DNA of 64,000 nucleotides. Origin: Candidatus Staskawiczbacteria bacterium (GTDB lineage: Bacteria; Patescibacteriota; Minisyncoccia; Minisyncoccales; Staskawiczbacteraceae). Every line of letters starts with the position of its first letter. Position 1 is the stretch's first letter. This document shows, piece by piece, positions 15,191-64,000 of the stretch. Location of the stretch: contig JBAZYR010000005.1 of the NCBI GenBank assembly GCA_041659225.1, forward strand, positions 4,824 through 68,823, in the 5' to 3' direction. The notes below the pieces were generated by a model. The model saw only the letters and a list, made by a program, of their open reading frames with translations, had not been told where the DNA came from and did no database searches. The position numbers and the translations under genes were made by a program.

Positions 15191-15289
15191 TAGTTTCGTG
15201 ATAGCATATAGTTGATTGGGCGTATTCCTGATCAAGGAGTGCAGTTCATTTACAAAGGAACGACGGTGCGTCGAACAAGGAGGTTGCAG

Positions 15290-15604
15290 ATGATAAAGAT
15301 GTTTATTGTTGAGTATTCCAAAATTGCGAAATTTCTTCTATGGGTACTTTTTAGTCTGTTTATGGTCGCCGAAGTGATCGCTATTCTCCAGCTCGATGTT
15401 ACTCTTATCTGCCGAGTAACGGCCATTGAGATTGTAATCGTTTTATGCATTTATATAATCCGAATTATTGTTCCGGAGCAATGGGTTGCAGCGTATAACG
15501 CAAAGCGTTTCTTCCGCTTAGACGAGATAGCTCCAGAGGAGGAGTTGGGATCGCCCCGCAGCGTAACACTCGAAAAAGAAGGAGACTCTGATGATAATGA
15601 TTGA
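15290..15604 (+). CDS. small two-TM membrane protein with acidic tail (GC-rich cassette A)
   Basis: ATG at 15290 is preceded by AAGGAGG (15279-15285). Two hydrophobic segments, C-terminus EKEGDSDDND. The upstream TTG (15212) has no RBS. Confidence 0.4.
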   Translation: MIKMFIVEYSKIAKFLLWVLFSLFMVAEVIAILQLDVTLICRVTAIEIVIVLCIYIIRIIVPEQWVAAYNAKRFFRLDEIAPEEELGSPRSVTLEKEGDSDDND

Positions 15605-15827
15605 CGCGGCAAAGTATTCAGGAAGCGCAGCAACAAAAGTACAAATCTTTCTTGGTGAAGCGATCTGTCAAATAGCTAAGGAAATCTTCAGTCCACTGAA
15701 TCGTTACGGGGCCCAATGTGCCTTTGCGACTCATGAGCCGACAATCGACCAACTGGTTGATAACTACGTAAAGACCGGCGCTATGTGCAGATGCATCGAA
15801 CGATTTTCCCGACGGGTCCAGACATGA
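15591..15827 (+). CDS. small hypothetical protein, paralog 1 (cassette A)
   Basis: Start overlaps the upstream stop and is preceded by GAAGGAG. Shares IFS.LNRYG.QC....H.PT..QL.DNY..TG with the next ORF. Confidence 0.4.
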   Translation: MIMIDAAKYSGSAATKVQIFLGEAICQIAKEIFSPLNRYGAQCAFATHEPTIDQLVDNYVKTGAMCRCIERFSRRVQT

Positions 15828-15863
15828 TTCGAATGGCCCGCTCTCGGTCCGAAAGGGGGTCGC

Positions 15864-16109
15864 ATGTTGACTCTTCACGTAATCCTTGAGATTGGTACAC
15901 AAAGCGTTGTAGCGGACGTGGAAATCTGTACCGGATCAATTAACGAAATACTCAATGATATCTTCAGCGGCCTGAATCGCTACGGCACGCAGTGTTACTA
16001 CGGGGTTCACGATCCCACATTTAACCAACTATTCGACAATTATCAGCGTACCGGCGGACTACAGAGACGCATTTCTTCGCTACCAAGAGCGAAAGCTCGC
16101 TGTCGATAG
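15864..16109 (+). CDS. small hypothetical protein, paralog 2 (cassette A)
   Basis: Preceded by AAGGGGG. Clear paralog of 15591-15827 (DIFSGLNRYGTQCYYGVHDPTFNQLFDNYQRTGG). Confidence 0.4.
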   Translation: MLTLHVILEIGTQSVVADVEICTGSINEILNDIFSGLNRYGTQCYYGVHDPTFNQLFDNYQRTGGLQRRISSLPRAKARCR

Positions 16110-16183
16110 ATTATGCATTCGTAATGCCCCACGGCCAAGCCAAGGGGTTTTTGTTTGGATACGAAACGTGATAGGATATATTA

Positions 16184-23490: not shown

Positions 23491-23519
23491 TTGACGTGCT
23501 TTTGATAGTATGATATAAT
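23491..23519 (+). promoter_or_regulatory. sigma-70 consensus-like promoter of the secretin cassette
   Basis: TTGACG, 17-nt spacer, TATAAT. Confidence 0.55.
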
Positions 23520-23579
23520 ATATTTGTTGACTTCGCGTGGAGTCACGATAGTGTGTTCGTTGACATAGGAGTCTGTAAG

Positions 23580-24989
23580 ATGAAGCGAGGATGTTTTTAC
23601 TACGTATCGGCCTTCATTGTTGCTTTCGCCATCGTCGGTTCGGCGATGGCTCAGCAATCGACAAGCGCCCCTGCGGGCGCCGTGGCCAGCGATGGCAAAG
23701 TCGTTATCGCCGGTCAGCCGGGTGATTACAACATCATCTCGAGTGACGGTCAGTTAACGATGCAGAGTTACGAAGTAACCGGGGTGTCTGTGGAAAGTAA
23801 GAGCACGCTGTACAAAGCGTTCCATAAGCTCCTGTCGAAAGACGGGCGTGGCGGGAGTGCCGAGGTGGCGCCGCTCACTCGGAACGGTAAGGAAATCATT
23901 CTTCTCATCGTAGCCGCGACACCCGAGATGCAACGTTCAATCGCGAAAACCGTTGAGCGGATCAACTCGGGAACCGTCGGCGCTTTCTGCTACACCCCAA
24001 AAAATGTGGTGTTCATTCCGAAGTATCGGTCGGCCGAGTCAATCGCTGCGGCTTTACGCGTGGAGATAACCAACATTGGTGTTCTCTACGTTGACCCGAT
24101 TCTGAACGCGATAACGATCGAGGATGACGCCACCTACGTGGACTGGCTGGTCAATTACGCACAAGAGTTTGACTCGCCACCTCCGCAGATTACGGCCATA
24201 CTGCGTCTTGTCGCCATTGACAAGAACAATGACAGCAGTGTCGGAACGGATTGGGGTGCTCTGCTTGATGGACTTCCACCGTCGATTTCGCTAAGTATCG
24301 GCGGTGAACGTCAGATCTTATCGCGCTCGGGCGAAGTAAGCGTCGCCAACGGTGATCCGAGCCTTGCCCTGACAGGTTCGAAGCAAAGGCTTTCGCACCT
24401 GCCCATAACGAGTTTTTCTGCGGCGGTTAACGAGATTTCGCCGCAGGCGGTAGGAGCCTTCTTCAGTTATCTGGAAACAAAGGGCGTGTGTCGGATTCTC
24501 AACACCGCCGACATTAATGTGGTCAACGGCTCGCCGACGGTCGTAAGCACGGAAGTGAGTATGCCCGTCACCGCCACAGTCTCAAGCGAGACCGGCGGCA
24601 AGCTTCGCCAGGAAGTTTCGGTTTTAGAAGGTGTTAAGATTACGATCAGCGGAAGTTTGGCCACAATCGGCCATCGCCTGAATGTTCAGGCGAGCAGTAC
24701 ATCGGTGGTGAGTTATACTCGCACCGGCCTTCCGCTCATCGCGACGAGTACTCTTGACACCGCCGTCCAGCTGCCGCGCAACCGCACAATCACCTTATCG
24801 GGGTTGTCGCGGCAGAAGGAGGTCACGGTAACACACAAGCCTCCGGTACTCGGAGACTTGGATGTCTTGAACCTTTTCTCAAAAAAGGTCACCGAAACCA
24901 GGGAATGGAAACTGTATATTTGCATCACGGTGGTTGACCCGCCGGTTGCAACTCCAGCGACCACGAACCCTTCGGTTTCGGTCAATTGA
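23580..24989 (+). CDS. secretin family protein (GspD/PilQ/RcpA/pIV-like), orphan (GC-rich cassette B)
   Basis: ATG at 23580 has AGGAG 8 nt upstream. Signal peptide MKRGCFYYVSAFIVAFAIVGSAMAQQ. Secretin_N-like block (YRSAESIAAALRVE..LYVDPILNAITIEDD). C-terminal secretin blocks (RILNTADINVVNGSPTVV; GVKITISGSL; TITLSGL; PPVLGDLDVLNLFSKK..WKLYICITV). Confidence 0.7.
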   Translation: MKRGCFYYVSAFIVAFAIVGSAMAQQSTSAPAGAVASDGKVVIAGQPGDYNIISSDGQLTMQSYEVTGVSVESKSTLYKAFHKLLSKDGRGGSAEVAPLTRNGKEIILLIVAATPEMQRSIAKTVERINSGTVGAFCYTPKNVVFIPKYRSAESIAAALRVEITNIGVLYVDPILNAITIEDDATYVDWLVNYAQEFDSPPPQITAILRLVAIDKNNDSSVGTDWGALLDGLPPSISLSIGGERQILSRSGEVSVANGDPSLALTGSKQRLSHLPITSFSAAVNEISPQAVGAFFSYLETKGVCRILNTADINVVNGSPTVVSTEVSMPVTATVSSETGGKLRQEVSVLEGVKITISGSLATIGHRLNVQASSTSVVSYTRTGLPLIATSTLDTAVQLPRNRTITLSGLSRQKEVTVTHKPPVLGDLDVLNLFSKKVTETREWKLYICITVVDPPVATPATTNPSVSVN

Positions 24990-25014
24990 CCGTTTCCTCG
25001 AACACAAACAACCA

Positions 25015-25051
25015 AGCCCGGTGGCTATCATGCTATCGGGCTCTTTCTTTT
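25015..25051 (+). terminator. intrinsic terminator of the secretin cassette
   Basis: AGCCCG, 16-nt loop, CGGGCT, then ctttctttt. Confidence 0.55.
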
Positions 25052-26916: not shown

Positions 26917-27005
26917 TAATTAACGGAAGAGTTTTCGGGGGATTATAGTAAGGCCGCCCGTTGTGGAAGGCGCACCTTTAAAAACCAACCCAGAAGGAGG
27001 TTTGT

Positions 27006-27413
27006 ATGGCCAGAAGAAGGAAAACTGAAATTACAACAGTTGGGGAAATCATACCTATTGGTGCAAGAATGCCGCAGTTTATTGTTGAATACCCCACCGG
27101 GAAAGGCAAAAGAGCAAGAACTCAAAAAATCAGCAAGGAAAACTTCCGCCGAGCCAATGCTATTGTTCGGCGATATCACGTGGTTGTTTGGGGATCAGGC
27201 GAGCATTTTCTTGCCAATTCGCTTGAATTGCCGCTCCGAATCGGCGTCGGCAAGACATTTGAGGAATGCTGTCAGAACCTTTTGATAATCATGGCGTATC
27301 AGGTCGGCGCTCTGCTACAAATGCAGGTTGAACCGCCAAAACCGGTAATCTGGCCGGTGAAAGTGAAGTTGGTCGCCGCTGACGACTTGAAAGCTGAACT
27401 CGGCGTCAAATAA
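27006..27413 (+). CDS. hypothetical protein, weakly HicB/UPF0150-like (GC-rich cassette C)
   Basis: Strong RBS GAAGGAGG 5 nt upstream of the start. The middle region (HVVVWGSGEHFLANSLELPLRIGVGKTFEECCQNL) resembles the HicB-type fold pattern. No toxin partner is visible. Confidence 0.3.
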   Translation: MARRRKTEITTVGEIIPIGARMPQFIVEYPTGKGKRARTQKISKENFRRANAIVRRYHVVVWGSGEHFLANSLELPLRIGVGKTFEECCQNLLIIMAYQVGALLQMQVEPPKPVIWPVKVKLVAADDLKAELGVK

Positions 27414-27462
27414 CCAAACATACACTGTCCTTCGGTTCTCACTTCTGAATCTCTCTCATAAT

Positions 27463-27484
27463 AGGTCGCTTCGCGACCTTTTTG
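27463..27484 (+). terminator. intrinsic terminator of cassette C
   Basis: AGGTCGC-ttc-GCGACCT followed by tttt. Confidence 0.7.
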
Positions 27485-33318: not shown

Positions 33319-33564
33319 ATGAAGGTTCTTATTTACTCTTTAAAAAATACTCTATTCCAAGACGAAGCAATTTCCTTAAGTTGCAAAACTTCCTCGGGAG
33401 AAATTACGGTTTTAGATCATCACGAGCCTTTGATAACTAACATCGAAATGGGCCTGATTAAGATAATTGACAAAAATCAAAAATCCAGCTATATTCAAGT
33501 CTCACGTGGGTTCCTTGAAATAAGAGCAAGCAACGAGGTCCGTTGCATAATTGAGGAGACATAA
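33319..33564 (+). CDS. atpC: F0F1 ATP synthase subunit epsilon, N-terminal beta-sandwich only
   Basis: Operon position, and the start abuts the atpD stop. At 81 aa it lacks the usual C-terminal helical hairpin. Confidence 0.75.
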   Translation: MKVLIYSLKNTLFQDEAISLSCKTSSGEITVLDHHEPLITNIEMGLIKIIDKNQKSSYIQVSRGFLEIRASNEVRCIIEET

Positions 33565-33566
33565 CT

Positions 33567-34028
33567 ATGGGACAAGCCATCCAATTCACAACTCCAAGCG
33601 ACCATTACGACTTTCGAAAAGAGAAGGGTTGTTGCATTCTTTGGTGCACAGATGCCCGATTCACTCCAGCTTTAGACAAGTTTGTGGCTGAACGCGGATA
33701 TATGCGCTACGATTTAATCCGTATCGCCGGTGGCGCGAACGTGTTGGCCACGCCCGAAGGAGACGGAGCAAGGTTTGTTATCGGTCAATTTGGCGCATTA
33801 CACAACCTTCACCATTTTGATAGCATCATACTAATGATGCATCAGGATTGCGGAGCCTGCGGCGGAAGCAAGGCATTCGGGGACGATTGCGCGCGGGAAT
33901 TACAGGATTTGAATTTACGACTATCCACCGCTTGCAAAGCCGTACGCGATAGCTTACCGTCAATCAAGGTGGAAACGGTTCTAGTGACCTTCAAGGAAAT
34001 CATATCAATTCCGCAACCTGTTCTCTAA
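33567..34028 (+). CDS. divergent beta-carbonic-anhydrase-like protein (CxDxR ... HxxC), cassette D
   Basis: C27-T-D29-A-R31 (ILWCTDARF), LIRIAGGANV (compare the beta-CA FVxRNAGN block), H92-Q-D-C95 (MMHQDCGACGG). The ATG lies 2 nt after the atpC stop, and its RBS GAGGAG is formed by the last atpC codons. Paralog of 39279-39848. Confidence 0.5.
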   Translation: MGQAIQFTTPSDHYDFRKEKGCCILWCTDARFTPALDKFVAERGYMRYDLIRIAGGANVLATPEGDGARFVIGQFGALHNLHHFDSIILMMHQDCGACGGSKAFGDDCARELQDLNLRLSTACKAVRDSLPSIKVETVLVTFKEIISIPQPVL

Positions 34029-34040
34029 AAGGAGGATCGG

Positions 34041-34304
34041 ATGAAGTTTACGACGAAGGCCGACTATTGGTATGGCAATCGACACGCGGTCGTTATTATC
34101 ACCATTGAAGGTAAGGGTGGAAAGGTTTTTATCACAACCGAATACGAAAAGAAAATCGAAGCAGAAATGATTTATAACAAGATACAGTTGAGATTCGAGG
34201 CGCCGGGTGCCCACGGTACTCGTATATACATAGTTTTTAATGACACACATCATCCCCCGGTACCGATTGCTCAGATGTACAAAGAGCTCCACGGAGAATC
34301 GTGA
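34041..34304 (+). CDS. small hypothetical protein, paralog 1 (cassette D)
   Basis: RBS AAGGAGG 5 nt upstream. Shares KF..(A)(D/E)Y.YG.NRA, G.FIT, L.FE...G.R and IA.M with the next ORF. Confidence 0.4.
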   Translation: MKFTTKADYWYGNRHAVVIITIEGKGGKVFITTEYEKKIEAEMIYNKIQLRFEAPGAHGTRIYIVFNDTHHPPVPIAQMYKELHGES

Positions 34305-34585
34305 TGAATGTGAAATTCAATGTCCAAGCGGAATACACTTACGGTGATAATAGGGCAATCACAGCTCAAATCATTATCGAAAGAACGCCAACTGGAATCT
34401 TCATAACCAACCTAGCTGAACTTCCTGTGAAAGTAACGATGCGTTTTGACGCTGTGCAATCCAAATTGATTTTTGAAGAAACTGCCGCGAATGGAAAGCG
34501 TGTTCACACGATTTCCGAAAAACATCTATCGCCTCACGAAATCGCTGATATGCATACAGCTCTTCTACTTGGCAAAACTCAATGA
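34301..34585 (+). CDS. small hypothetical protein, paralog 2 (cassette D)
   Basis: Start overlaps the upstream stop (GTGATGA context). Paralogous to 34041-34304. Confidence 0.4.
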   Translation: MMNVKFNVQAEYTYGDNRAITAQIIIERTPTGIFITNLAELPVKVTMRFDAVQSKLIFEETAANGKRVHTISEKHLSPHEIADMHTALLLGKTQ

Positions 34586-36077: not shown

Positions 36078-36800
36078 TTGACAGGTTTTACAATCCATGC
36101 TATCGTATTACTATACTTTACGATTATGCCGAGGATAGAAATTGCTGACTTTCCAATGAACTACTCGGGATAAATTCACGATTAGTTCTTTGGATGGTTG
36201 GCAGGCTCGCTTTTAAAGGTGAGCTGTCCGCTATCCTACAGGCCGCGTCCGACAGTTGGTGGGCGAGCGAACATAGACTCGAGGGTTTCCAAAAAATTAG
36301 GGCAATGCTAGTTGAGTCGCCGACGGCTTTCCACGTCGACGTGATACTCTCGCGTTGTGGATCTTCGGTGCAACGGGTGCCGAAACCTAGGCAGCGGTCA
36401 AGGGCCTACCCGAAAATCTTGACTGGGAACCCACCCACCAACTGTCACTTGTTCATTGAAAACAAAAGTAGAAACAGAACTTCGCGCTATCGTTCGCGTG
36501 AACGAAAGACGAAGTTTTCTTACTGAGGAGTACACTTTATGCGCACCCTTCGCCACCCGGTCATGTTTGCGATTATCTTCTGTGCGCACCGCCGGCACCG
36601 CCACGGTCAGCCCTGACCACGTCGGCACGGGCCCGCTAGCGCCCGAATCAAGATAGTCCTATGGATGGGCTGATTCGGGTTCTGGCGAAAGACCCAAGAG
36701 GAGGAACACATATGTTCCCCAAGGACCCTCCGTTCTACTAAAGACAAACGAGGGCAGGAACGTCTCATGGCCGAGGACGCATTCCTGCCCCTCTTTTTTT
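36078..36800 (+). ncRNA. candidate large structured RNA or micro-ORF leader unit (promoter to terminator, no credible long ORF)
   Basis: Promoter TTGACA (36078), 17-nt spacer, TATCGT. Many local perfect hairpins: CACGTCGACGTG 36332-43; TTCGGTGC/GTGCCGAA 36364-84; AACTTCG[CGTTC-gcgt-GAACG]CGAAGTT 36478-516; CCCGAATCA/TGATTCGGG 36642-79; GGAACAcataTGTTCC 36703-18. Ends in a strong terminator GGGCAGGAACGTC...GACGcaTTCCTGCCC plus ctcttttttt (36752-36800). The only long ORF (36194-36526) lacks an RBS and is Arg/Ser-rich. Confidence 0.3.
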
Positions 36801-36840: not shown

Positions 36841-36973
36841 AAGCACACTAAAGGCAAGCGGACTTGCCCGAAGAGTTCGTTGACAAGTTGGAAGGAGAGT
36901 CGAACAAATGAAATAAAATTCGCATATCGTATCGGTTTGTAGACGCAGGCCATGAAACGAAAGGAGACAGGCC

Positions 36974-44790: not shown

Positions 44791-44865
44791 GCCCCTATAA
44801 CTCAATGGTAGAGTAACAGCCTTTTAAGCTGTGAGTTGCAGGTTCGAGTCCTGCTGGGGGCACCA
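44791..44865 (+). tRNA. tRNA-Lys (UUU), CCA encoded
   Basis: Hand-folded cloverleaf. Acceptor GCCCCTA/TGGGGGC, anticodon loop CTTTTAA, T-arm GCAGG-TTCGAGT-CCTGC, then A-CCA. Confidence 0.9.
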
Positions 44866-44869
44866 AATT

Positions 44870-44890
44870 AATCCCGTTAGGGATTTTTTT
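44870..44890 (+). terminator. intrinsic terminator after tRNA-Lys
   Basis: AATCCC-gtta-GGGATT followed by ttttt, running directly into TTGACA (44889) of the next cassette promoter (16-nt spacer, TAATAT). Confidence 0.7.
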
Positions 44891-44952
44891 GACAAATAAC
44901 AAAATTGTGATAATATATTTCTGACGTCCTTTTACAAAGAGGGAGGTAAACA

Positions 44953-45774
44953 ATGGCATTGCGGGTAGCGATTTTTGGACCTTCAGGGATCGGTAAAACC
45001 CCCCTGAATAGTTTATTCAAAGTTTCCACCTGGGAACCATTTCGCATTCGATCTCCTCGGAACAAGGCCGAAGAGGGGATTTGCATGTCTCAACGCCGGT
45101 TTGAGCAATTGTTCGCCCAACAAAGCGGGAAAATCCCTATATACCGGGATCCAGACCCTTTAACGCGTCGCTTATACATATTCGAGGACTGGTCATTCTT
45201 CCGAATTCGCGGGACAGCCGATCAGTGCTTGGAGCATATCCCCGCAGCACGGGATTCTTCCCTGCCTTTGAAGATAGAAATCTATGCACCGATTTTTCTT
45301 CAGCTGTTGCGCCTTCATGGCCAATTTCCTGAAATAGCCGAAAAGGTCGTGTCGTGCGATAACAAGGATTTACTGATCATACTGCTAAATCCGACTGGAT
45401 TGACATACCTGGGAATGGAAAAGCCGATTAAACAATTGCGATCTGCCACTTTTACGGCGGTAGTAGAGCGGGCCCGCGTCCAGAATCTAAGCCGCAACCT
45501 TGACGAGGCGCGTCAAAGGGCCGACTATCTCGATGAGGAGCTGCCGGCTTGGCGGGAATTAATGAGCGATGGTTATCCGGTTGTTGAATGCATCTATTGG
45601 CCATACTTTGAATTCAGTTACGGATCTGGCGACCTGGCCCGCGCTCGTGTTCAACTTATGACCGCACGCCAATACATAATCGACTGCATCAGGAAGCAGT
45701 ATCCGCACAAACTTGCGGAATTCCTGGATATAATCCGAACGCCGATGGAAATATCGAAGCTCGCCTGCATATGA
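44953..45774 (+). CDS. P-loop protein, guanylate-kinase-like (GC-rich cassette)
   Basis: RBS GGGAGG. GPSGIGKTPL matches the GPSGxGK(S/T) guanylate-kinase P-loop, followed by RIRSPRNKAEEG (compare TTRxPRxGE). The rest is unrecognisable. Confidence 0.4.
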   Translation: MALRVAIFGPSGIGKTPLNSLFKVSTWEPFRIRSPRNKAEEGICMSQRRFEQLFAQQSGKIPIYRDPDPLTRRLYIFEDWSFFRIRGTADQCLEHIPAARDSSLPLKIEIYAPIFLQLLRLHGQFPEIAEKVVSCDNKDLLIILLNPTGLTYLGMEKPIKQLRSATFTAVVERARVQNLSRNLDEARQRADYLDEELPAWRELMSDGYPVVECIYWPYFEFSYGSGDLARARVQLMTARQYIIDCIRKQYPHKLAEFLDIIRTPMEISKLACI

Positions 45775-46034: not shown

Positions 46035-46170
46035 GGCAGAATTTGCGTAATACTGGTACCGCACAGCTTTCTTTGTTTGTTGTGCGTTTTTTTGACAAAA
46101 CCTTAGGAATTTTGTATTCTATGTTTGGCGCCTTAACAATACTTGGTACTAAACAAACAAGGAGGTTCTC

Positions 46171-46413
46171 ATGAAAGGTTTGCTTTTTAATGATCTTTGC
46201 TACAATCGAGCTAATACTTTGGACCACCGGCAAAGTTGGTGTGTCCAAATAAACGGGAAAAGATGTCATCTCATTTGCCACACTAAAGGTACTGCAGAAA
46301 AGCCCGAACATGATATAAAGGTCGGATATTGCGACGAAACCTGCGGGAAATACGCAGCTGTGCCTGCGGATATTTGGAAAGAAGCTCTCAGACAAATCGG
46401 GCTATTGCCCTAG
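46171..46413 (+). CDS. small Cys-rich hypothetical protein
   Basis: TTGACA (46092), 17-nt spacer, TATTCT promoter. RBS AAGGAGG. 7 Cys in 80 aa (C10, C24, C32, C36, C54, C58 and others). Terminator at 46441-46478. Confidence 0.4.
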   Translation: MKGLLFNDLCYNRANTLDHRQSWCVQINGKRCHLICHTKGTAEKPEHDIKVGYCDETCGKYAAVPADIWKEALRQIGLLP

Positions 46414-46563
46414 TCATCCTTTTCATCAGTCAGCGAATACGCCCAACGAACAACCAGCTCGTTCGGGCTCTTTTTTTTGCTGAAACTGCAGGTTGTAAAA
46501 ATTTAAAAACTAGATATAATAAACTATTGCACCTTACAATTTAACGGAGAAGGGAGGTGTTGG

Positions 46564-47292
46564 GTGAAACGTATAGTTAACGAGCTCTGCCTTTTGTCCA
46601 TCACAATTCCAATTGCATTTTTTCTCGGTGTCGGCCTAACTTTTCTCGACAAAATGGGACGGATCAGAATTCTCCATAAAGAACGCTTTCCGTTTTGGAA
46701 ACGAAGGCTGATTGTTGTTTCAAATCATCCGTCATTGCTTGAAACTGTTATAATCCCCATCCTATTCTACCCTGAATTCTGCTTAAATCCTTTCTGGTAC
46801 TCACCGTATAGCACTCCGGACAAAAGGAACTTCTACGACCGATGGTACTGGTTCTGGGCAAGACCCAGATTAATCCCGATCGACCGCAGTAACGGACGCA
46901 GCGAAGGCCGTTCGCTCCGCGACATGAAAGAAATTCTTGATAAACAAGGAATAATTGTCATCTTTGGCGAAGGCGGAAGAACCTTCAAGGGCAAGGAAGA
47001 TGAATTTCTTTACAGCAAATACGGAAAACGGATCAGAAGGCTTACAAATGGGTTAGGTTGGTTGGTTTCCCGTACGAAAGCCCACATCCTACCTATTTGG
47101 GTGGAAGGCACAGATAGTATTCTACTAAACCACCCTGGCAAACTTTTTGCAGGCATTAATCTGCGCGGAAAAGCTAGCATTCGAATCGGGAATATCCTTC
47201 GCCTTAACGCATCCCGGCGCTTCGGTTCAACCAAACAAATTACGAATAAAATAGAAGAAGCGCTTTTAGCGCTTGCAGATGAACAAGAGTAG
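46564..47292 (+). CDS. lysophospholipid (1-acyl-glycerol-3-phosphate) acyltransferase family protein
   Basis: GTG start with GGGAGG RBS. VVSNHPSLLET (HX4D/E-type motif I) and FGEGGRT (motif III). Confidence 0.6.
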   Translation: MKRIVNELCLLSITIPIAFFLGVGLTFLDKMGRIRILHKERFPFWKRRLIVVSNHPSLLETVIIPILFYPEFCLNPFWYSPYSTPDKRNFYDRWYWFWARPRLIPIDRSNGRSEGRSLRDMKEILDKQGIIVIFGEGGRTFKGKEDEFLYSKYGKRIRRLTNGLGWLVSRTKAHILPIWVEGTDSILLNHPGKLFAGINLRGKASIRIGNILRLNASRRFGSTKQITNKIEEALLALADEQE

Positions 47293-57360: not shown

Positions 57361-58289
57361 AAATAGCAATTATTGGGGCTGGAACCTGCGGGCTATACCT
57401 TGCGTGGAAGCTGGCGAAGAAAAAACACGAGGTGGTTGTATTCGAGAAAAGCAATACAGTTGGCGAGAAAGCCTGCTCTGGTTTGTTTTCTGAACGCATC
57501 CTCGACTTTGTGCCAAAATCCAAGGCCTTAATTGAGAATGAGATTAGCTCGGTCCTTATTCATTTTCCAAAAAAAACCGTGAAGGTACACTTTTCTAAAA
57601 AGTTCTTGCTTATGAGTCATTCGAAGCTAGATGAATTGCTATCTGGCTTAGCTAAACAAGCCGGGGTTCGAATTGTTTTTAACTGCAATGTTTTAGAACT
57701 GCCAACTGATTTTGACCGCATAATAGGCTGCGACGGCGCCGCTTCATTCACACGAAAAAACATGGGCCTGGCGGATCCTTCACTACGGCTTGGAATTCAG
57801 GGATTTTCAACGGCAACTCTAAAAGATGATTTTGTTGAAACCTGGCCATGTAAAAATGGATTCATTTGGAAGATACCGCGGAAAGAAAATATTGAATATG
57901 GAATAATGGCTGATACGGATACGGCATACCGAATATTTAACGAGTTTACCCGCCAAGAGGGGATCAATTTAACGGACATTAAATCAAAAATTATCCCGCA
58001 GGGATTAGTGATTGCAGAACATGAAAAAATGACTCTGTGCGGTGATTCAGCCGGCATGACCAAACCTTGGTCCGGTGGGGGAGTGATTTGGGGTTTGATT
58101 GCCGCCGACATGCTTCTGGAAAGCTTTCCGAACTTTAACGATTATGTGCAAAAGACAAAGAAATTCTTTTCCCTTAAAATTTTTCTCTCACAAATGTTAA
58201 TTAAATTCATCTATTTTCTTGGTTTTAACCTGCCTTTCCTTCTGCCGAAGAGTAACAAGATAGAAGCAGATTTCATCTTTAAGAGTTGA
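57357..58289 (+). CDS. FAD-dependent oxidoreductase (geranylgeranyl-reductase-like)
   Basis: KIAIIGAGTCGLYLAWKLAKKKHEVVVFEK Rossmann GxGxxG and a later GDSAG block. Confidence 0.6.
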   Translation: MKIAIIGAGTCGLYLAWKLAKKKHEVVVFEKSNTVGEKACSGLFSERILDFVPKSKALIENEISSVLIHFPKKTVKVHFSKKFLLMSHSKLDELLSGLAKQAGVRIVFNCNVLELPTDFDRIIGCDGAASFTRKNMGLADPSLRLGIQGFSTATLKDDFVETWPCKNGFIWKIPRKENIEYGIMADTDTAYRIFNEFTRQEGINLTDIKSKIIPQGLVIAEHEKMTLCGDSAGMTKPWSGGGVIWGLIAADMLLESFPNFNDYVQKTKKFFSLKIFLSQMLIKFIYFLGFNLPFLLPKSNKIEADFIFKS

Positions 58290-58371
58290 CATTATCCCGT
58301 TTTGTTATAATATATAACCGTATCGCCGCTCGTTTAAAACCTGTTTAAAACCTACGAAAGGCGGTGTCCTC

Positions 58372-58923
58372 GTGAGTATTGTTCCAAATCACAGAAAGAA
58401 CGTTTTGCAGGGTCCCGGGAAGGTAACCATAATGCCGACCATCGACAAGGAAGGCAAACCGTCATCCTGCGGCCTGTTCGAAATCGGCGGCATGAAATTC
58501 CTTTCCGGCCGGATACTTGCGCAAAGCCATGCGCATGTTAGTTTAATGAAAAAAACTATGCGGAAAGTGACTCCGCAACTAATCAGCACGTACTTTAAAA
58601 AGTCCGGGCTGACGCTTCAGGATTTCTTTACTGATAACCCCGAACGGACTCTCCAATACTTCGGGGAACTTTGCGCGAAAATCATCAAAAGAGCTACTGA
58701 AAAGAAAATAACCGACATCCCCGCGGTAATAGATCACCTGCAGGAGTGGAAATCCACACTTGAGAATGGAGCCCCGAAACCCCTCTGGGATAAACTGCAC
58801 GATACAATCGTGACTCTACAGGATTTAGTCCCAGACGCTGATGACCTTGATCGCGATCCCGAGGATGAGCCACTCTTAACGATCGAACAATTGGCCGAAC
58901 TGCAAAAAGAAAAACACGAATGA
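58372..58923 (+). CDS. hypothetical protein with acidic C-terminus (GC-rich cassette F)
   Basis: GTG start. TTGACA at 58286 upstream with an AT-rich -10 region. No recognisable motif. Tail DADDLDRDPEDEPLL. Confidence 0.35.
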   Translation: MSIVPNHRKNVLQGPGKVTIMPTIDKEGKPSSCGLFEIGGMKFLSGRILAQSHAHVSLMKKTMRKVTPQLISTYFKKSGLTLQDFFTDNPERTLQYFGELCAKIIKRATEKKITDIPAVIDHLQEWKSTLENGAPKPLWDKLHDTIVTLQDLVPDADDLDRDPEDEPLLTIEQLAELQKEKHE

Positions 58924-58934
58924 GCACACCCCAT

Positions 58935-58961
58935 AAAAATAGCCGACATCGTCGGCTTTTC
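58935..58961. terminator. bidirectional intrinsic terminator between convergent genes
   Basis: aaaaat, then AGCCGAC-atc-GTCGGCT, then tttt. A-run and T-run on either side. Confidence 0.65.
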
Positions 58962-58963: not shown

Positions 58964-59452
58964 TTATACGGATTGAGCGAATGTTTCAGCCATTGAGAGA
59001 TACTTTGCTTTCTTGGGCCTGCTTTTGTATTTTGCGATATCCTTATGAATCGCCATTAGTTTTTGGAAATCACCGGGAATCCACGCAGCTAGGATTTTTC
59101 CTTTGTTCTTATAAATAATTTCAACTGCCTTGGACCAAGCTTGGAAATCATTTTTCTTTTTCCCTGATAAGGCGTGTTTTTTAAAATACGGAACAACGCA
59201 TTCATAGACCTCAGTTATATTCTGAACAGAATAACGGGCTTGATTTTTAACAACATGAACATTCCCGCATTGCAATGTATCACGGACAGATTCCAACACA
59301 TTACTCTGGGATGCGTTTTTTGTGATAATAAATTGAACCTTCCATCGGTAGTAAGTAGGGGAGTTGGTCCTATTTGCTTTAGTATCTTTCCGGAATTGAA
59401 GGTCAAAACAGCCTTCTTGGTTTACTATTTGTACAATATTTATTTTTTCCAT
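58964..59452 (-). CDS. LAGLIDADG-family homing endonuclease (free-standing)
   Basis: QIVNQEGCFDL (LAGLIDADG-type xxxGEGCF block), YRWKVQFIITKNASQSNVLESVRDTLQCG, YFKKHALSGKKKNDFQAW. AT-rich, unlike both flanking cassettes. Confidence 0.7.
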   Translation of the reverse strand: MEKINIVQIVNQEGCFDLQFRKDTKANRTNSPTYYRWKVQFIITKNASQSNVLESVRDTLQCGNVHVVKNQARYSVQNITEVYECVVPYFKKHALSGKKKNDFQAWSKAVEIIYKNKGKILAAWIPGDFQKLMAIHKDIAKYKSRPKKAKYLSMAETFAQSV

Positions 59453-59601
59453 ATATTCTTATTATATCATCAATATTTTTTGACGACTAGTCGCACAATA
59501 TTATATAACCTGCACAGAAAGAGTAGGGGAACACTAAAATTGACAAATTTAAGAACAAGGTGTATATTATACCCAGTTGTTTAACATCCGAAACCTAACT
59601 C

Positions 59602-59817
59602 ATGGAGGATAAAACCGTGCTTCGAATAGGAGAAGTCCGCATCAGTAGAATGCTGGGATGGCATTGCTATTCACCCGACAAGAGGGACGAAAATCAGACT
59701 CACGTGCCAGAAAGTTGCCTAGTGTGCAAGGAATCCTTCCAGGACGGCACTCCACAGGTAGTCGTTGAGGCTGCTGACGGAACGCGGCACAAAACGCATG
59801 TTGATTGTTTCGACTAG
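59602..59817 (+). CDS. small putative zinc-binding protein (cassette G)
   Basis: Promoter TTGACA (59540), 17-nt spacer, TATATT. CLVC ... HKTHVDC ligand pattern. No clear RBS. Confidence 0.3.
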   Translation: MEDKTVLRIGEVRISRMLGWHCYSPDKRDENQTHVPESCLVCKESFQDGTPQVVVEAADGTRHKTHVDCFD

Positions 59818-59834
59818 AAAGGAGGCATTTAAAT

Positions 59835-60182
59835 ATGGCTCATAAAATACCAACAATCTGCATAACGCGCGAGCCAATTACCGGTTTCTGCTATCCATTT
59901 TGTCGAGCGCTTCTCAACAAGCTCATTTCTCTGGCGCAGGAAGACAACCTTTTTGCCAAAGACGGCAAGCACGCATCAGAGAATCCTACGGGACAAAAAA
60001 ACGTCCATCTCATCGATAATACAACTCCTTTGTCACTAGGCCTCACCCCAATCGCAGACACTGTTATTAGAAACATCTGTGGTCAACTCAGGCTAGTGAT
60101 GATAACAAAGTCTTCAGCTCAGCAAGTCGGCTCTTTTATCGACATGGTACGAGAGTTCCTCGATATTTTTGAAAAAGAATAA
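59835..60182 (+). CDS. hypothetical protein (cassette G)
   Basis: The ATG at 59835 is preceded by AAAGGAGG (the listed start at 59805 overlaps the previous ORF). 115 aa with no motif. Confidence 0.35.
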   Translation: MAHKIPTICITREPITGFCYPFCRALLNKLISLAQEDNLFAKDGKHASENPTGQKNVHLIDNTTPLSLGLTPIADTVIRNICGQLRLVMITKSSAQQVGSFIDMVREFLDIFEKE

Positions 60183-60202
60183 ACAAGCACCACTAAGTAT
60201 AT

Positions 60203-60238
60203 GCGCCAAAAGTCCCCGGACCCAGGCGCTGTTTTTTT
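60203..60238 (+). terminator. intrinsic terminator of cassette G
   Basis: GCGCC, 17-nt loop, GGCGC, followed by tgttttttt. Confidence 0.6.
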
Positions 60239-60447
60239 GTTCGCTTAACATATATGTGAGGAGCTAATTGTGTCGACCTGAAACTTCGTAATACGGCTGT
60301 TGTGCGAAAATAATATAAATTCCTGAACCCGTTACGCCAACATTTTAAGGCGGTTTTTAGTTTGACAAACATAGCGGTTTGCCATATTGTACAGTGTAAT
60401 GGCGTGTGCCATATCACAGCTTTTTTAAAACACAATTTCGCTGCCAC

Positions 60448-61017
60448 ATGGCAGAGAGGAGGCTCGAGGTGAAGAATTTCATCGTACTAGAAGGCTTGAG
60501 CGGAAGCGGAAAAACAACCATCGGTAAACTATTAGCCGAACGTATGGGGGCTGATTTTTACAAAACTCCGCCGGCAGTTTTCCGGTCTATTCGGGATGAA
60601 GTCGATCGGACCGCCGGCACGATGTCCCGTTTCTTTTTCTATCTGTCAGGAACTCTTTTATCTTCTCAAGAGATCTCACGGATTCTGGAGAATAGAGACG
60701 TGATTTGCGACCGATATATTTACACCACCATATGTTATCATCTGGCCATAGGGCTGGACTTCGAAATACCGGCCGCGCTTTTCCAGCAAATCGTCATGCC
60801 CAACCATTTTTTTCTGGTAACCTGTCGCGAAGAAACTAGAATTAAAAGACTGAGCGCAAGGGGGATGACCGCAAACGACATAGCCGAAAGAAAAGAGGGA
60901 ATTGAAGCGCGATTCATCGCCGAGTACAGGAAATTCAAGCCGGTTGAGATCGACAACTCAGGGAACAGCCCCGAGTATGCTGTTGAGCAAATCATGGGCA
61001 TCGTCGGAAGAGGTTGA
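60448..61017 (+). CDS. thymidylate-kinase-like (dNMP kinase family) P-loop protein (cassette H)
   Basis: Promoter TTGACA (60362), 17-nt spacer, TATTGT. FIVLEGLSGSGKTT (Tmk-type P-loop) and CDRYIYTTICYH (compare DRYxxSxxAYQ). An alternative GTG start at 60469 has a GGAGG RBS. Confidence 0.55.
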   Translation: MAERRLEVKNFIVLEGLSGSGKTTIGKLLAERMGADFYKTPPAVFRSIRDEVDRTAGTMSRFFFYLSGTLLSSQEISRILENRDVICDRYIYTTICYHLAIGLDFEIPAALFQQIVMPNHFFLVTCREETRIKRLSARGMTANDIAERKEGIEARFIAEYRKFKPVEIDNSGNSPEYAVEQIMGIVGRG

Positions 61018-61021
61018 AACC

Positions 61022-61627
61022 ATGAAAAAGATTATCTTAACAGGTGGAACATCCGGCGGGAAAACAACAATTCTAGAGAGGTTAAAAAAACGCTTCAATC
61101 GCAATGCCGTTTTTGTCCGAGAGACAGCAACACTGTTACTCGAAGGCGGCTATCCAAAACCGGGTGATTTATTGCCCTGGAGCCAAGACTGGCATTTATT
61201 ATTTGAAGATGCGGTCTTCTATCTGCAGAGATCTTTGGAAGATGCCAGTTCATTAGTAGCACGACACCAAAACTGCGACTTGATTATCTGCGACCGCGGC
61301 CTTCTCGACGTGGCCGGACATCTGCCCGGAGGAAGGGCACAGTTCTGCTGCCGGTACGACACGACGGAAGAAGAATCTCTGTCGCGATATGATGTCGTCA
61401 TTCATTTAGTCTCATTTGCCATGTTCGACCCTACCGGGTATTCCGCAGTGGCGGAAACTAGGTGGGGGAACTCACATCTTTCATCACTCGAGTACGCTCA
61501 TTGTACTGAAAGGGCAACGTTAGACGCTTGGTCTAATCACAAAAGAAGATATATAGTGGGCGGTCAAGGAAACATCGATCGTAAAACAGCGGAAGTAATC
61601 GAAATCATTGAGCGCGCTATTGCATGA
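61022..61627 (+). CDS. AAA_28/NadR-NRK-like P-loop NTPase or kinase (cassette H)
   Basis: KIILTGGTSGGKTTILERL P-loop and ICDRGLLDVAGH. The ATG lies 4 nt after the upstream stop. The listed 60902 start is out-of-frame overlap. Confidence 0.45.
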   Translation: MKKIILTGGTSGGKTTILERLKKRFNRNAVFVRETATLLLEGGYPKPGDLLPWSQDWHLLFEDAVFYLQRSLEDASSLVARHQNCDLIICDRGLLDVAGHLPGGRAQFCCRYDTTEEESLSRYDVVIHLVSFAMFDPTGYSAVAETRWGNSHLSSLEYAHCTERATLDAWSNHKRRYIVGGQGNIDRKTAEVIEIIERAIA

Positions 61628-61787
61628 ATACGCGCTCTTTTCTTAAATCAGTATCTGGCGACTTGTAATTTAGGCGCAGAAAGGGCAAAATATATTAACG
61701 AATAATTGGAAACTGCCCCCTGTCAGAGACGGTTTCCGCCCTCTATGCCGAACCGGAGAAACGAAGATAAAGGTAACAAGTTTTTGT

Positions 61788-63494
61788 ATGCAGAAAAATA
61801 ATATTTTAGACATTTATAAAAAAATCTATGACCTACCGGAACTTTCTCAAACCGAAAAGGTGGATTTTAATTTTTTCCGATTATGCGAAAAAAACTATAA
61901 TTTTGTCGTAGTCAGCGCGTACAATGAAAAACATGAATTTCTTCTGACTAGAGATCTTAACAAAGATATCGGTTGGGAATTAGTTGGAGGGTATATAAAA
62001 GACGGGGAAAACATTATAGACGCCGCAAACCGGGTCGTTTTAAAGGAGACAGGCCTCATCATAGATGAGTTGCAGCCCATAGCAATTATTAATAATAATT
62101 TCAAATTTAATAATGGGATTATCACCCATCGGGGAATCGCATTTATTGCGTTATCTCGGAAGAAGATCAAACCACAGCCGGAAAACATCAAAGTGATATA
62201 CACAGAAGATGCGCCCGACAAAATGGCATATTACAATAAAGAAATATTCAAAATTGCGAAAGAAATATTAACGATAAAAAACTTTAACCCGCCATATGAT
62301 GAAATCGACAGCGCTAAAAAGTTTTTACCGTTGCACCTAATTAATAAGTATTTTATTAGTATAGTCGGACAGATATCATCCAGAAAAATAAAGAAACGTA
62401 TACTAGGCCTGATCTCTTCAAACCCCAAGTCGATAATAGATGTATGTTGCGGTGACGACAGCTTTATTTTCCAGCTTGAGCGGCGGTACAAGCCCGAAAT
62501 TTTTGTCGCCAATGACATCTCCTGGAAAACTTTGCTACTATTAAAAAATCGGAACAAAAAGAGCGACATAATTTTTACTAATCACAACGTGATTGATTTG
62601 CCCTTTCAGGATAAGTTTGACCTGGTGATATTTAAAAATAGTCTTCATCATATAGATAGGGGGGATCAAGCCGATTTAGTGAAAAACTTTTCTGACATAT
62701 CGAAAGAGCTAATAGTTGTCGATATTGAAGATCCTAACAGGTCTAATTTCCTTTCGAAAATATGGCACTATTACTATGTATATTTTCTTGGAGACGTAGG
62801 AGGAAATTTTTTCACATATGGCGAGTTCAAGGAATTTATAAAAAACAACATAAAAGGCAAGGAAATAAAATTCGGAGTCATTGACACTATTAAGGGAAGA
62901 TATTTCTATTCGGTTCTGAGAGAAAAGGCCAACATGGAAGAGGTAGAAATAAAAGTTAAACTGAATGACAGCTCGGTTAAGGAGGTGCGGAAAGAGTTAT
63001 ACAAATTAGGTGCGATACTAGACGGTGAGGACGAAGAAAGGGACACGTATTTTACTGCCCCACATCGGGATTTTATTAAAACAAAAGAGTGTCTTAGGAT
63101 ACGGGAGAAGGGTGCCTATACCGAACTCACATATAAAGGGCCGACTACAAAAGAAATGCTGAAGAAAAAACAATTTTGGAAGCCTGAAATCAACATTCCA
63201 TTCAAAGGTAACCGGGATGATGTGGAAACGATGCTCGAGATGTTAAGCTTTAAAAAAGTGGTTGATTTCACCAAACATCGAGAAAAATTCTTGTTAGGCG
63301 CGAAAACCATAACCATCGATAAAATAGGTGATTTAGGATATTTTCTCGAGATAGAAGAAGTTGTTAGAACAAAGAAAGATAGGGAAAGGGTTTTGGAGGA
63401 AAATATTGAATTTCTGGATGTTTTTAAGCTATCTAAAAAAGATATTGTTGAGAAGCCTTATCGGGACCTAGTTATTGAATCTAATAAAAGCTAG
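61788..63494 (+). CDS. three-domain fusion: NUDIX hydrolase, class I SAM methyltransferase, CYTH (CyaB/triphosphatase-like)
   Basis: NUDIX box GGYIKDGENIIDAANRVVLKETGL. MTase motif I IIDVCCGDDSF plus FDLVIFKNSLHH. C-terminal CYTH signature start MEEVEIKVKL with later RIREKG..ELTYKG and LEIEE. Confidence 0.6.
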   Translation: MQKNNILDIYKKIYDLPELSQTEKVDFNFFRLCEKNYNFVVVSAYNEKHEFLLTRDLNKDIGWELVGGYIKDGENIIDAANRVVLKETGLIIDELQPIAIINNNFKFNNGIITHRGIAFIALSRKKIKPQPENIKVIYTEDAPDKMAYYNKEIFKIAKEILTIKNFNPPYDEIDSAKKFLPLHLINKYFISIVGQISSRKIKKRILGLISSNPKSIIDVCCGDDSFIFQLERRYKPEIFVANDISWKTLLLLKNRNKKSDIIFTNHNVIDLPFQDKFDLVIFKNSLHHIDRGDQADLVKNFSDISKELIVVDIEDPNRSNFLSKIWHYYYVYFLGDVGGNFFTYGEFKEFIKNNIKGKEIKFGVIDTIKGRYFYSVLREKANMEEVEIKVKLNDSSVKEVRKELYKLGAILDGEDEERDTYFTAPHRDFIKTKECLRIREKGAYTELTYKGPTTKEMLKKKQFWKPEINIPFKGNRDDVETMLEMLSFKKVVDFTKHREKFLLGAKTITIDKIGDLGYFLEIEEVVRTKKDRERVLEENIEFLDVFKLSKKDIVEKPYRDLVIESNKS

Positions 63495-63603
63495 AGATTT
63501 AATCCACCCTCTGTTTGTTGACAAATAGTAGCTTTGTAATATAATAACAAAGCCCTTTGAAATATAAGAAATGTCTTTCCAGATAAAAGTGAAAGGAGAC
63601 AAC

Positions 63604-64000
63604 ATGTTCTATTTCTTAAGCGATGACCTTACAAAACTACGGGAAATAATCAAAAAAGTAAGAGAAGAACTCGACGCAGCTCTCAAAAGCATTGGAGACG
63701 CCTGCGAAGGGGAGTCCAATACTTGGCATGATAACTTCGCGTATGAAGAAGGCCAGCGCCAGGTGGACATGGTATCAAGACGATATCAGGAGCTGCAGAC
63801 GATGTTTATGAACGTTGCTGTCATAGACCCCCCAAAGGATAATCTCAAAGTTCAGATCGGCCACACAGTTGTTGTTAAAGACCCTTACGAGAAAGAAGAT
63901 CAAGTATACAGGATTGGCAGCTATATGTGCTTTCAGGAAGACGAAAATGAAGATGGAGGTGATCAGGTTATCTCCTATGCCGCACCGCTTGGGCAGCTTT
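63604..64000 (+). CDS. GreA/GreB-family-like protein, 3'-truncated by window edge
   Basis: Promoter TTGACA, 16-nt spacer, TATAAT. RBS AAAGGAG. Coiled-coil N-terminus with WHDNFAYEEGQRQ (compare ENAEY..Ak.eQ), then IGHTVVVKD...YRIGS...ISYAAPLGQ, a Gre C-terminal-domain-like pattern. Confidence 0.5.
   Translation, partial: MFYFLSDDLTKLREIIKKVREELDAALKSIGDACEGESNTWHDNFAYEEGQRQVDMVSRRYQELQTMFMNVAVIDPPKDNLKVQIGHTVVVKDPYEKEDQVYRIGSYMCFQEDENEDGGDQVISYAAPLGQL

Follow-up and report, generated by a model that had tools for sequence, protein, structure and literature searches.

Small gene units led by Shine-Dalgarno sites between the operons of a Candidatus Staskawiczbacteria genome are probably horizontally acquired

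We analysed a stretch of 64,000 nucleotides (nt), hereafter called the window, from a Parcubacteria metagenome-assembled genome (MAG; Candidatus Staskawiczbacteria / Paceibacterota) with a size of about 0.8 Mb. The window has a GC content of 0.432, and nearly all of its genes lie on the plus strand. Between the core genes we found about 11-12 small units (cassettes) with their own promoters, whose open reading frames (ORFs) start behind Shine-Dalgarno (SD) sites (Table 1). We consider it probable that these units are horizontally acquired or exchanged genes, which occupy insertion or recombination hotspots bounded by core genes. A previous sequence-only reading of this DNA had proposed that about ten GC-rich, self-contained foreign cassettes interrupt an AT-rich backbone without SD sites.

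The strongest contrast between cassettes and core was found in the translation signals. SD sites were scored by pairing with ACCUCCUUA, and sites with dG <= -8 kcal/mol were called strong. A strong SD precedes 20 of the 23 cassette ORFs and none of the 44 core genes (Fisher p = 3e-14); the figure for random positions was 3.3%. With the looser cut-off of dG <= -6, the counts were 23/23 for cassette ORFs and 3/44 for core genes. In addition, the frequency of G in the cassette leaders has its maximum (0.5-0.6) at positions -8 to -12, and the core leaders consist of 43% A and 32% T (75% A+T). These counts confirm the earlier claim that cassette genes are led by SD sites and backbone genes are not. 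Some start codons were refined, including those of the secretin-like gene (ATG at 23580), of the genes at 15290 and 15590, of the GTG at 59617, the ATG at 59835 and the GTG at 60469, of the small ORFs at 40019 and 40233, and of the GreA-like gene at 63604. An ORF at 59602 had been described as lacking a ribosome-binding site; a GGAGG site is present when the GTG at 59617 is taken as its start.

Cassette promoters are of the TTGACA-N16-18-TATAAT type, and their -10 boxes lie 33-133 nt before the start codon. The best -35/-10 matches of the region coincide with the starts of the listed blocks (23491, 36078, 36813, 39908, 44889, 46092, 58286, 59540, 60362, and 63518), as the sequence-only reading had noticed, and those at 36813, 39908, and 63518 score 12/12. 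Two cassettes for which no promoter had been seen do have one: TTGACA-16-TAGCAT with TG lies at 15180 before the 15.2 kb cassette, and a candidate TTGACA-17-TATATT lies at 33467, inside atpC, before the 33.57 kb block. The promoter of the 27.0 kb cassette is weak, as had been stated, with a 9/12 match. Most cassettes end in a hairpin-plus-T terminator, again as described before; terminators were detected at 25015, 27463, 39869, 46456, and 58941, and three more were recognized by eye (16127-16155, 36752-36800, and 40429-40472).

Meanwhile, many core genes carry an extended -10 box (TGnTAnnAT) 2-12 nt from the ATG, in agreement with the earlier description. This box precedes the start codon by 5 nt in the gene at 2731, by 6 nt in those at 16184 and 52178, by 9 nt in hrcA, 10 nt in dnaK, 11 nt in typA, and 12 nt in the gene at 5421. 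From this spacing these core genes look leaderless or nearly so, without an SD. Full -35 boxes are also found at the core genes typA (25050) and hrcA (40492), as had been remarked for some backbone genes. A repeat search of the window also showed a compact module of the core, in which the T-run of a terminator hairpin merges into an extended -10 box (TTTTTTGGTAGAATA) at 7665-7707, 47296-47338, 50046-50088, 50529-50571, and 52130-52172. One such module makes the stop of one transcript and the start of the next.

The base composition of the cassettes was compared with a pooled core reference of 44 genes (GC 0.418; GC at third codon positions, GC3, 0.429; standard deviation per gene 0.034), and the GC3 of each gene was compared with the pooled core value by a binomial test. 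Seven of about 20 cassette genes have a significant GC3 excess, with values of 0.53-0.72 against 0.43 in the core. They include all three genes of the flotillin unit, namely flotillin (37543, p = 2e-45), NfeD (36974, p = 3e-4), and protein X (39279, p = 1e-5). The others are the secretin-like gene at 23580 (GC 0.55, GC3 0.63, p = 3e-19), the genes at 44953 (p = 2e-4) and 58372 (p = 0.003), and the kinase ORF (p = 0.002, tested as 60406-61017). The excess is marginal at 33567 (p = 0.045) and 59602 (p = 0.035), and it is not significant for the 27.0 kb gene (p = 0.08) or for the genes at 15.2-16.1, 34.04-34.6, 46.17, 59.8, and 60.9 kb. Sliding windows of GC peak at 23.6-25.0 kb (0.55-0.57) and 37.4-39.6 kb (0.55-0.62), with minor bumps near 45.4, 58.6, and 60.6-61.4 kb. 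There are therefore about five compositionally distinct blocks (secretin, NfeD-flotillin-X, 44953, 58372, and 60469). For these blocks the sharp breaks reported earlier are supported by both GC3 and sliding windows; however, the remaining blocks are not outliers, and "about ten GC-rich cassettes" is an overstatement because about half of the units have no significant GC3 excess. In related loci, sampled without bias, strong-SD genes make up about 6% of 252 genes, and their GC3 is 0.047 above that of their neighbours (p = 0.002).

The DNA comes from a metagenome and its composition shifts sharply at intergenic boundaries, which would also be expected if GC-rich fragments of other organisms had been joined into a contig of the candidate phyla radiation (CPR) by an assembly or binning error. 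However, positions 29460-44863 (15.4 kb) of the window recur with 100% identity in the Logan assembly of SRR6484324, and positions 31248-51757 (20.5 kb) are found unchanged on an ENA contig of 785 kb, so that the same junctions are present in two assemblies, which may share one read set. Furthermore, the blocks measure 0.4-3.7 kb and have core DNA on either side, similar islands are seen in the diverged relatives L086, L087, and L092 from independent samples, and another MAG at NCBI has the 44953 protein as well, encoded on a contig of 184.6 kb. A chimeric contig is very unlikely because the junctions are identical in the ENA contig and the Logan assembly, and this explanation is close to refuted.

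To place the units among relatives, we used a DnaK-based metagenome scan that gave 80 loci, the closest of which are 80-88% identical in DnaK. No homolog of a cassette protein was found near dnaK in any of these 80 loci. Four intervals are bounded by orthologous core genes in relatives. First, in the closest relative (L005, DnaK 88%), the FKBP gene is followed by a spacer of 750 bp, the CIRCE-like operator and hrcA, and there is no NfeD-flotillin-X unit. The window has an extra 3.7 kb at this place (36801-40483), which comprises the NfeD-flotillin-X unit and the small-ORF unit. The same site holds an unrelated GC-rich, SD-led gene in L012 (8256-8801) and an NfeD-flotillin-X operon of its own in L086. 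Its right border is the CIRCE-like repeat, a variant of the HrcA operator consensus that also occurs at about 1010-1040 in L005. Second, the gap between tRNA-Lys and tRNA-Ala is 33 nt in L036, contains plsC alone in L010, and reaches 2.7-3.0 kb in L007 and L012, where other SD-led genes fill it, and 3.1 kb in the window. Third, typA is followed by the gene at 27006 in the window, by an LpxC-like gene in L086, and by a gene for 121 amino acids (aa) in L036 (5800-6165); all three are SD-led and mutually unrelated. Fourth, L092 is syntenic with the window at 53.6-59.5 kb (S41 protease, rplI, pyrG, rpmA, and a LAGLIDADG gene), and beside its LAGLIDADG gene there is a GC-rich, SD-led island with other cargo, including a homolog of the window's secretin.

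The comparison with sister genomes thus showed presence and absence as well as differing content at the same sites. The sequence-only reading had held that the cassettes split otherwise conserved neighbourhoods. This is not what we found: in relatives, typA|atp and similar neighbourhoods lack conservation, and the sites are hotspots that hold other SD-led genes. A scan with HrcA in the genome contigs of GTDB returned only one distant Patescibacteria MAG (42% identity, GC 0.32), which is uninformative on presence or absence.

A further difference was seen between dnaJ and the S41 protease-rplI block, which are 0.1-7 kb apart in at least five relatives (L004, L016, L017/L018, L022, and L030) and 8.8 kb apart in the window. 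The insert of the window (44780-53612) holds tRNA-Lys, two cassettes, plsC, tRNA-Ala, guaA, a cupredoxin-like gene, a serpin gene, greA, and a DNA-alkylation repair gene. Because of this difference in length, the region seems to be rearranged or variable too.

The NfeD-flotillin-X operon (unit 5) has homologs in other bacteria. Its flotillin contains a Band_7/SPFH domain (E = 5e-26) and is preceded by a gene for an NfeD-like membrane protein, whose NfeD C-terminal domain scored below the cut-off (E = 4e-4). Protein X has about 170-190 aa with a weak Pro_CA_2 match, and it is the third conserved gene in the clade. The NfeD-flotillin pair is kept in all six contexts examined (L085-L089 and the window). 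The best non-self match of the flotillin is 66% identical, and the matches at 52-57% identity include proteins named by NCBI as Planctomycetes and Verrucomicrobiae. In the GC-rich non-CPR contigs L085 (GC 0.59), L088 (0.52), and L089 (0.66), NfeD-flotillin matches the local composition at 63-66% identity, and protein X is present in L088 and L089, too. L086 and L087 are AT-rich hosts without SD sites, and there NfeD-flotillin stands out as a GC-rich island led by SD sites, just as it does in the window. Furthermore, the operon of L086 lies directly before hrcA, as in the window, and the core proteins of L086 are 58-82% identical to those of the window.

The flotillins of the window and L086 were never sisters in neighbour-joining bootstraps (0/200), and L086 paired with L087 in 173/200; this is a distance tree of one protein, and its evidence is weak. 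At four-fold sites, the two flotillins have an observed identity of 0.37 against an expected 0.35 and are saturated, whereas the core genes of the same pair show 0.36-0.40 against 0.25-0.26 and have kept residual identity. The GC3 of flotillin is 0.72 and 0.83 in hosts with a core GC3 of about 0.43. A single ancestral gain of the operon, common to the window and L086, was rejected, since the tree and the four-fold sites argue against it. From these comparisons, it is likely that a single hotspot received the operon in separate events, or that a copy there underwent xenologous replacement.

Judged by its distant homologs and the incongruent tree, the flotillin operon is the only unit for which foreign ancestry is indicated. 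Thus, for the largest blocks, the idea of repeated acquisition of foreign units is supported by the empty site, by the graded tRNA gap, and by a flotillin operon that is native in non-CPR genomes, but ancestry of this kind was seen for one operon only. As to donor phyla, the flotillin operon was found in GC-rich non-CPR contigs. The families of the secretin, 44953, and 27006 proteins have almost no relatives, so that these three cannot be assigned to any donor phylum.

Table 1. Positions of the units and of neighbouring features in the window
Feature	Position	Strand	Description
Unit 1	15180..16155	+	Promoter 15180-15207 (TTGACA-16-TAGCAT with TG); hairpin and T-run near 16127-16155
Unit 1 genes	15290-15604, 15590-15826, 15864-16109	+	SD-led; last two are tandem paralogs
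Unit 1 flanks	14183-15190; 16184-16870		Radical-SAM (rlmN-like); amino-acid kinase (pyrH-like)
Unit 2	23491..25042	+	Promoter 23491-23519 (TTGACG-17-TATAAT), AGGAG, secretin-like gene 23580-24989, terminator 25015-25042
Unit 3	26920..27479	+	Promoter 26920-26949 (9/12), AAGGAGG, gene 27006-27413, terminator 27463-27479; downstream of typA
Unit 4	33467..34585	+	Candidate promoter 33467-33495 inside atpC
Unit 4 genes	33567-34028, 34041-34304, 34304-34585	+	SD-led; first is a distant protein X paralog, last two are tandem paralogs (33% identity)
Mini-ORF RNA	36078..36800	+	Promoter 36078-36106, GC-rich RNA, SD-led mini-ORF 36712-36741 (MFPKDPPFY-stop), terminator 36752-36800
Unit 5	36813..39891	+	Promoter 36813-36840 (12/12), terminator 39869-39891
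Unit 5 genes	36974-37504, 37543-39210, 39279-39848	+	All SD-led; NfeD-like, flotillin/SPFH, protein X
Unit 6	39908..40472	+	Promoter 39908-39937 (12/12), terminator 40429-40472
Unit 6 small ORFs	40019-40117, 40233-40379	+	SD-led; 32 aa, and 48 aa (His/Lys/Arg-rich)
CIRCE-like repeat	40484..40520	+	TATCACTC-N9-GAGTGATA (40484-40508), overlaps the hrcA promoter (TTGACA-17-TATCAT) at -35; core boundary
tRNA-Lys(UUU)	44791..44865	+	Conserved left border of hotspot
Unit 7	44889..45774	+	Promoter 44889-44916, GGGAGG, P-loop protein gene 44953-45774
Unit 8	46092..46469	+	Promoter 46092-46120, AAGGAGG, 80-aa gene 46171-46413, terminator 46456-46469; not GC-rich
plsC-like acyltransferase	46564-47292 (element 46493..47292)	+	SD-led, promoter 46493-46520
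tRNA-Ala(GGC)	48012-48084		Right end of tRNA-Lys hotspot
Unit 9	58286..58957	+	Promoter 58286-58313, gene 58372-58923, bidirectional terminator 58941-58957
LAGLIDADG homing-endonuclease gene	58964..59452	-	Free-standing; GC 0.37, core-like; leaderless-type promoter
Unit 10	59540..60236	+	Promoter 59540-59568; SD-led genes 59617-59817 (GTG) and 59835-60182; possible weak terminator near 60203-60236
Unit 11	60362..61627	+	Promoter 60362-60390; SD-led dTMP-kinase-like gene 60469-61017; AAA_28 NTPase gene 60977-61627
Unit 12	63518..64000	+	Promoter 63518-63545 (12/12), AGGAG, GreA-like paralog from 63604

Three ORFs touching the listed features need comment. The gene at 15590-15826 was missed by longest-ORF calling, since a spurious minus-strand ORF (15618-15902) covers it. 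The minus-strand ORF of 146 aa at 40080-40520, which is called in public assemblies, is probably spurious, with GC2 (GC at second codon positions) of 0.63, without a credible initiation signal, and overlapped by SD-led ORFs of the plus strand. Finally, the ORF of 110 aa at 36194-36526 was rejected as a gene, since it has no credible initiation signal.

At least two SD-led elements proved to be native to the lineage. The RNA at 36078-36800 had been included in a GC-rich cassette block. It is no foreign cassette: the element is native, is shared with L005, and precedes the insertion point. L005 carries two homologous units at 600-1000 that encode MLVDPPFF-stop and MSDPPFY-stop. Because the codons differ synonymously, the mini-ORF peptide (xDPPF[YF]-stop) seems to be translated, conserved, and under selection. 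The RNA has a fold z-score of -3.9, and its mini-ORF may be a PP-stalling leader or a regulatory peptide ahead of the hrcA region. At the gathering level, Rfam matched only the two tRNAs; neither the RNA at 36.0-36.9 kb nor its counterpart in L005 had a credible match. The second element is the plsC-like gene, whose strong SD is kept in three genomes (the window, L007, and L012) and which has occupied the tRNA-Lys hotspot for longer. Therefore, an SD with a leader marks an expression class enriched for acquired genes and is not an infallible label of foreignness. The earlier suggestion that such signals are alien to the host holds for the core (0/44), but the plsC-like gene keeps its SD in three genomes.

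Several observations weigh against horizontal gain of the units. The mini-ORF RNA and plsC are SD-led and leadered but native, and half of the units are no compositional outliers by the binomial GC3 test. Several cassette starts were picked partly for the preceding SD, and at least 13 are longest-ORF starts. Members of the secretin, 44953, and 27006 families are seldom found, and CPR-like contigs carry both of the secretin homologs that were examined in their context. The high GC3 of flotillin in three AT-rich hosts agrees with recent independent gains, but it could also be explained by selection or biased conversion. In addition, no integrase or transposase was seen among the Pfam-scanned genes, and no repeats flank the units in the window.

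Some of these observations would suit a different history, in which the SD-led, leadered units are old accessory or regulated genes of Parcubacteria, the folding of GC-richer leaders makes an SD necessary whereas core genes initiate in a leaderless or unstructured manner, composition and signals are thus linked biophysically, and the patchy distribution results from loss. The mini-ORF RNA and plsC, both common to relatives, the absence of a GC3 excess in half of the units, the rare families, and the 6% of SD-led genes in related loci all fit this history. However, leader structure cannot produce GC3 values of 0.63-0.72, and close relatives have empty sites. Furthermore, GC-rich genomes outside the CPR have the flotillin operon as a native element, its copies in CPR hosts are not monophyletic, and the synonymous divergence between the window and L086 is greater in flotillin than in core genes. 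We therefore regard an old native origin of the whole class as unlikely.

It could also be asked whether a mobile element moved the cassettes, be it a homing endonuclease acting through co-conversion of the DNA beside the LAGLIDADG gene, a phage, or a system similar to integrons. The LAGLIDADG gene separates unit 9 from unit 10. In L092, an ortholog with 53% identity (5137-5724, minus strand) sits in the syntenic place, and GC-rich, SD-led islands with different cargo adjoin both genes. One of the hotspots also adjoins a tRNA gene. Against this, no attC-like or flanking repeat, integrase, or transposase was found in the 64 kb; the repeat search returned only the core modules of terminator plus TGGTAGAAT. 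Most units are distant from the LAGLIDADG gene, and the units bear their own promoters, unlike integron cassettes. Four proteins of the cassette regions (secretin, 44953, kinase, and LAGLIDADG) have no relatives among IMG/VR viral contigs, a search in which only close relatives are detectable; a phage origin is thus unsupported. The earlier statement that no integrase, attC-like repeat, or transposase explains the cassettes stands, but a LAGLIDADG gene lies among the units at 58-61 kb, so that mobility genes are not strictly absent, although this gene explains little. This gene could promote local co-conversion, and the distant units are not explained by it. We consider movement by such an element very unlikely.

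Whether the SD sites work in this host depends on the 3' end of its 16S rRNA, which with a retained anti-SD would read ...GGAUCACCUCCUUA. No rRNA was found in the 64 kb by Rfam, and the 10 kb past the right end of the window contain protein-coding genes only. An anti-SD motif was detected in 48% of Parcubacteria (Tsurumaki et al. 2022, PMC9297842). A scan of the related loci for the 16S 3'-end motif matched L087 only, where the end reads ...AAGTCGTAACAAGG...GGATCA-TTTTTTTAAAA, with a T-run in place of the CCTCC anti-SD. L087 is an AT-rich contig that is not a close relative of the window, and it also bears an SD-led NfeD-flotillin island. The leaders of core genes are rich in A in these genomes.

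These facts, together with the lack of strong SD sites in the core, would agree with a host ribosome without CCUCC, on which the SD sites are leftovers of the donors, and cassette translation is either very low or proceeds with no SD pairing. However, the 16S of L087 belongs to another genome, whose GreA is 47% identical to that of the window. Before orthologs with saturated synonymous sites, the SD has retained its position and sequence, namely for plsC (three genomes), for NfeD, flotillin, and X (window and L086), and for the mini-ORFs (window and L005). Conservation of the SD upstream of synonymously saturated orthologs argues for selection. Thus, SD-led initiation is part of the repertoire of this lineage, and it is probably functional there; that the SD sites are mere relics seems doubtful to us.

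The cargo fits accessory DNA, with P-loop kinases (one with a PADLOC match), a PD-(D/E)XK-like protein, and a HicB-like protein. The secretin-like gene is monocistronic in the window. Its product matches Pfam PF00263 with 50 bits (cut-off 27.5) and PF03958 with 25.4 bits (cut-off 28.2), and a signal peptide was recognized by eye. In a collection of 5.8 billion proteins, only four belong to the same family. Both homologs with examined context (L090 2969-4366 and L092 7774-9153) lie at different positions, one of them between ftsA and ftsZ. Parcubacteria are generally regarded as having no outer membrane. The P-loop protein of unit 7 has four distant relatives besides the identical copy in the second MAG. 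The product of 27006 is nearly an orphan that resembles HicB by eye, with one clear homolog among 1.8 billion representatives in an exhaustive HMMER search. The product of 58372 has a weak match to PD-(D/E)XK / DUF4420.

When ten cassette proteins were scanned against PADLOC and NCBIfam, only the dTMP-kinase-like and the GreA-like proteins gave matches. The dTMP-kinase-like protein matched the PADLOC candidate defence families PDC-M51B (E = 4e-29) and VakA (E = 3e-23), and with the overlapping AAA_28 NTPase gene it may form a two-gene defence module (60469-61627). The product of 63604 is a second, divergent GreA. Its unit crosses the edge of the window, and the gene ends 83 nt past it. Past the right edge (L093 11817-21707, 10 kb), the GreA-like paralog is accompanied by an SD-led gene for 79 aa and by genes for Fic, a Gabija-like pair of OLD/TOPRIM ATPase and UvrD helicase, an N6/N4 methyltransferase, RNase H, and Mrr; a large share of this stretch is AT-richer than the core (GC 0.33). 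Because of the Fic, Gabija-like, methyltransferase, and Mrr genes, the right end of the window appears to open into a larger accessory or defence region.

Returning to horizontal gain, we propose how it could have come about. Core genes would be transcribed from extended -10 promoters close to their starts, and inside operons they follow A/T-rich, SD-free stretches. The units (0.4-3.1 kb) stand at operon boundaries. Each combines a full -35/-10 promoter with a leader of 35-130 nt and SD-led ORFs, and most end in an intrinsic terminator. We infer that incoming DNA was inserted in the gaps separating transcription units, either by homologous recombination in the flanking core genes or by illegitimate recombination. 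The hotspots are the place that follows tRNA-Lys, the one before the hrcA operator, the one behind typA, and the surroundings of the LAGLIDADG gene. Only units with their own promoter, ribosome-binding site, and terminator would be expressed and tolerated amid the very short intergenic spacers. We suggest that a unit needs or retains its SD because its long, GC-richer leader cannot use the leaderless or unstructured-leader route of the host, and that a gene dropped between host operons can be expressed because the design of the unit is self-contained.

A bolder version would be that the lineage has two initiation regimes, with a vertical core that is independent of SD sites and a circulating set of GC-richer, SD-led mini-operons which re-enter the same hotspots, the flotillin operon having been gained independently before hrcA. 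In this version the core genes would be leaderless or have A-rich leaders, and pairing might occur with a changed 16S end that is rich in U, as in L087. We think it quite unlikely. If it were true, the initiation signal would separate native from acquired genes and could permit regulation or silencing of the whole class.

Strong pressure towards smaller genomes is assumed for Patescibacteria, and nevertheless genes are gained. At base-pair resolution, such gain is seen at this locus as self-sufficient, tiny units placed between operons at a few reusable sites. Furthermore, the contrast of SD-led genes with an SD-free core offers a simple marker of accessory genes that needs only the sequence, and it should aid gene callers that misplace starts or call spurious ORFs. 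It also sharpens the question of how SD-led acquired genes are translated in Parcubacteria hosts without an anti-SD.

This is a clear case of horizontal gene gain, and it is not unprecedented. Oliveira, Touchon, Cury and Rocha reportedly described in 2017 that hotspots of horizontal gene transfer flanked by core genes are general in bacteria. In Patescibacteria, as much as 13% of a genome is covered by horizontal transfer and genomic islands (Gios et al. 2025, PMC12455944). The window resembles such hotspots and islands in that accessory genes of varying content are found in few core-bounded intervals, one of them by a tRNA gene. Many hotspots also have no recognisable mobile-element genes, and their cargo is likewise defence-like or orphan. 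However, the units here are tiny (one to three genes), are GC-richer and not AT-richer than the host, and are marked by initiation with a leader and an SD against an SD-free, often leaderless core. In the literature searched, we found no description of acquired genes coupled to a distinct initiation design.

Integron cassettes are also small units of one to three genes, inserted serially and mostly with unknown functions. Unlike them, the units of the window are scattered over several loci and do not form one array, no attC or IntI was found, and each unit has its own promoter (10-12/12 match) and terminator in place of a common Pc. Initiation of the Bacteroidetes type is independent of SD sites. 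The core of the window is similar to that of Bacteroidetes and of Parcubacteria without an anti-SD, with no SD and A/T-rich initiation regions; however, a minority of genes here has a strong, well-placed SD that is kept across orthologs. Finally, unit 5 resembles known NfeD-flotillin operons in having a Band_7/SPFH gene after an NfeD-like gene, and it differs from them by the third gene X, by forming a compositional island in CPR hosts, and by its position before hrcA in two genomes.

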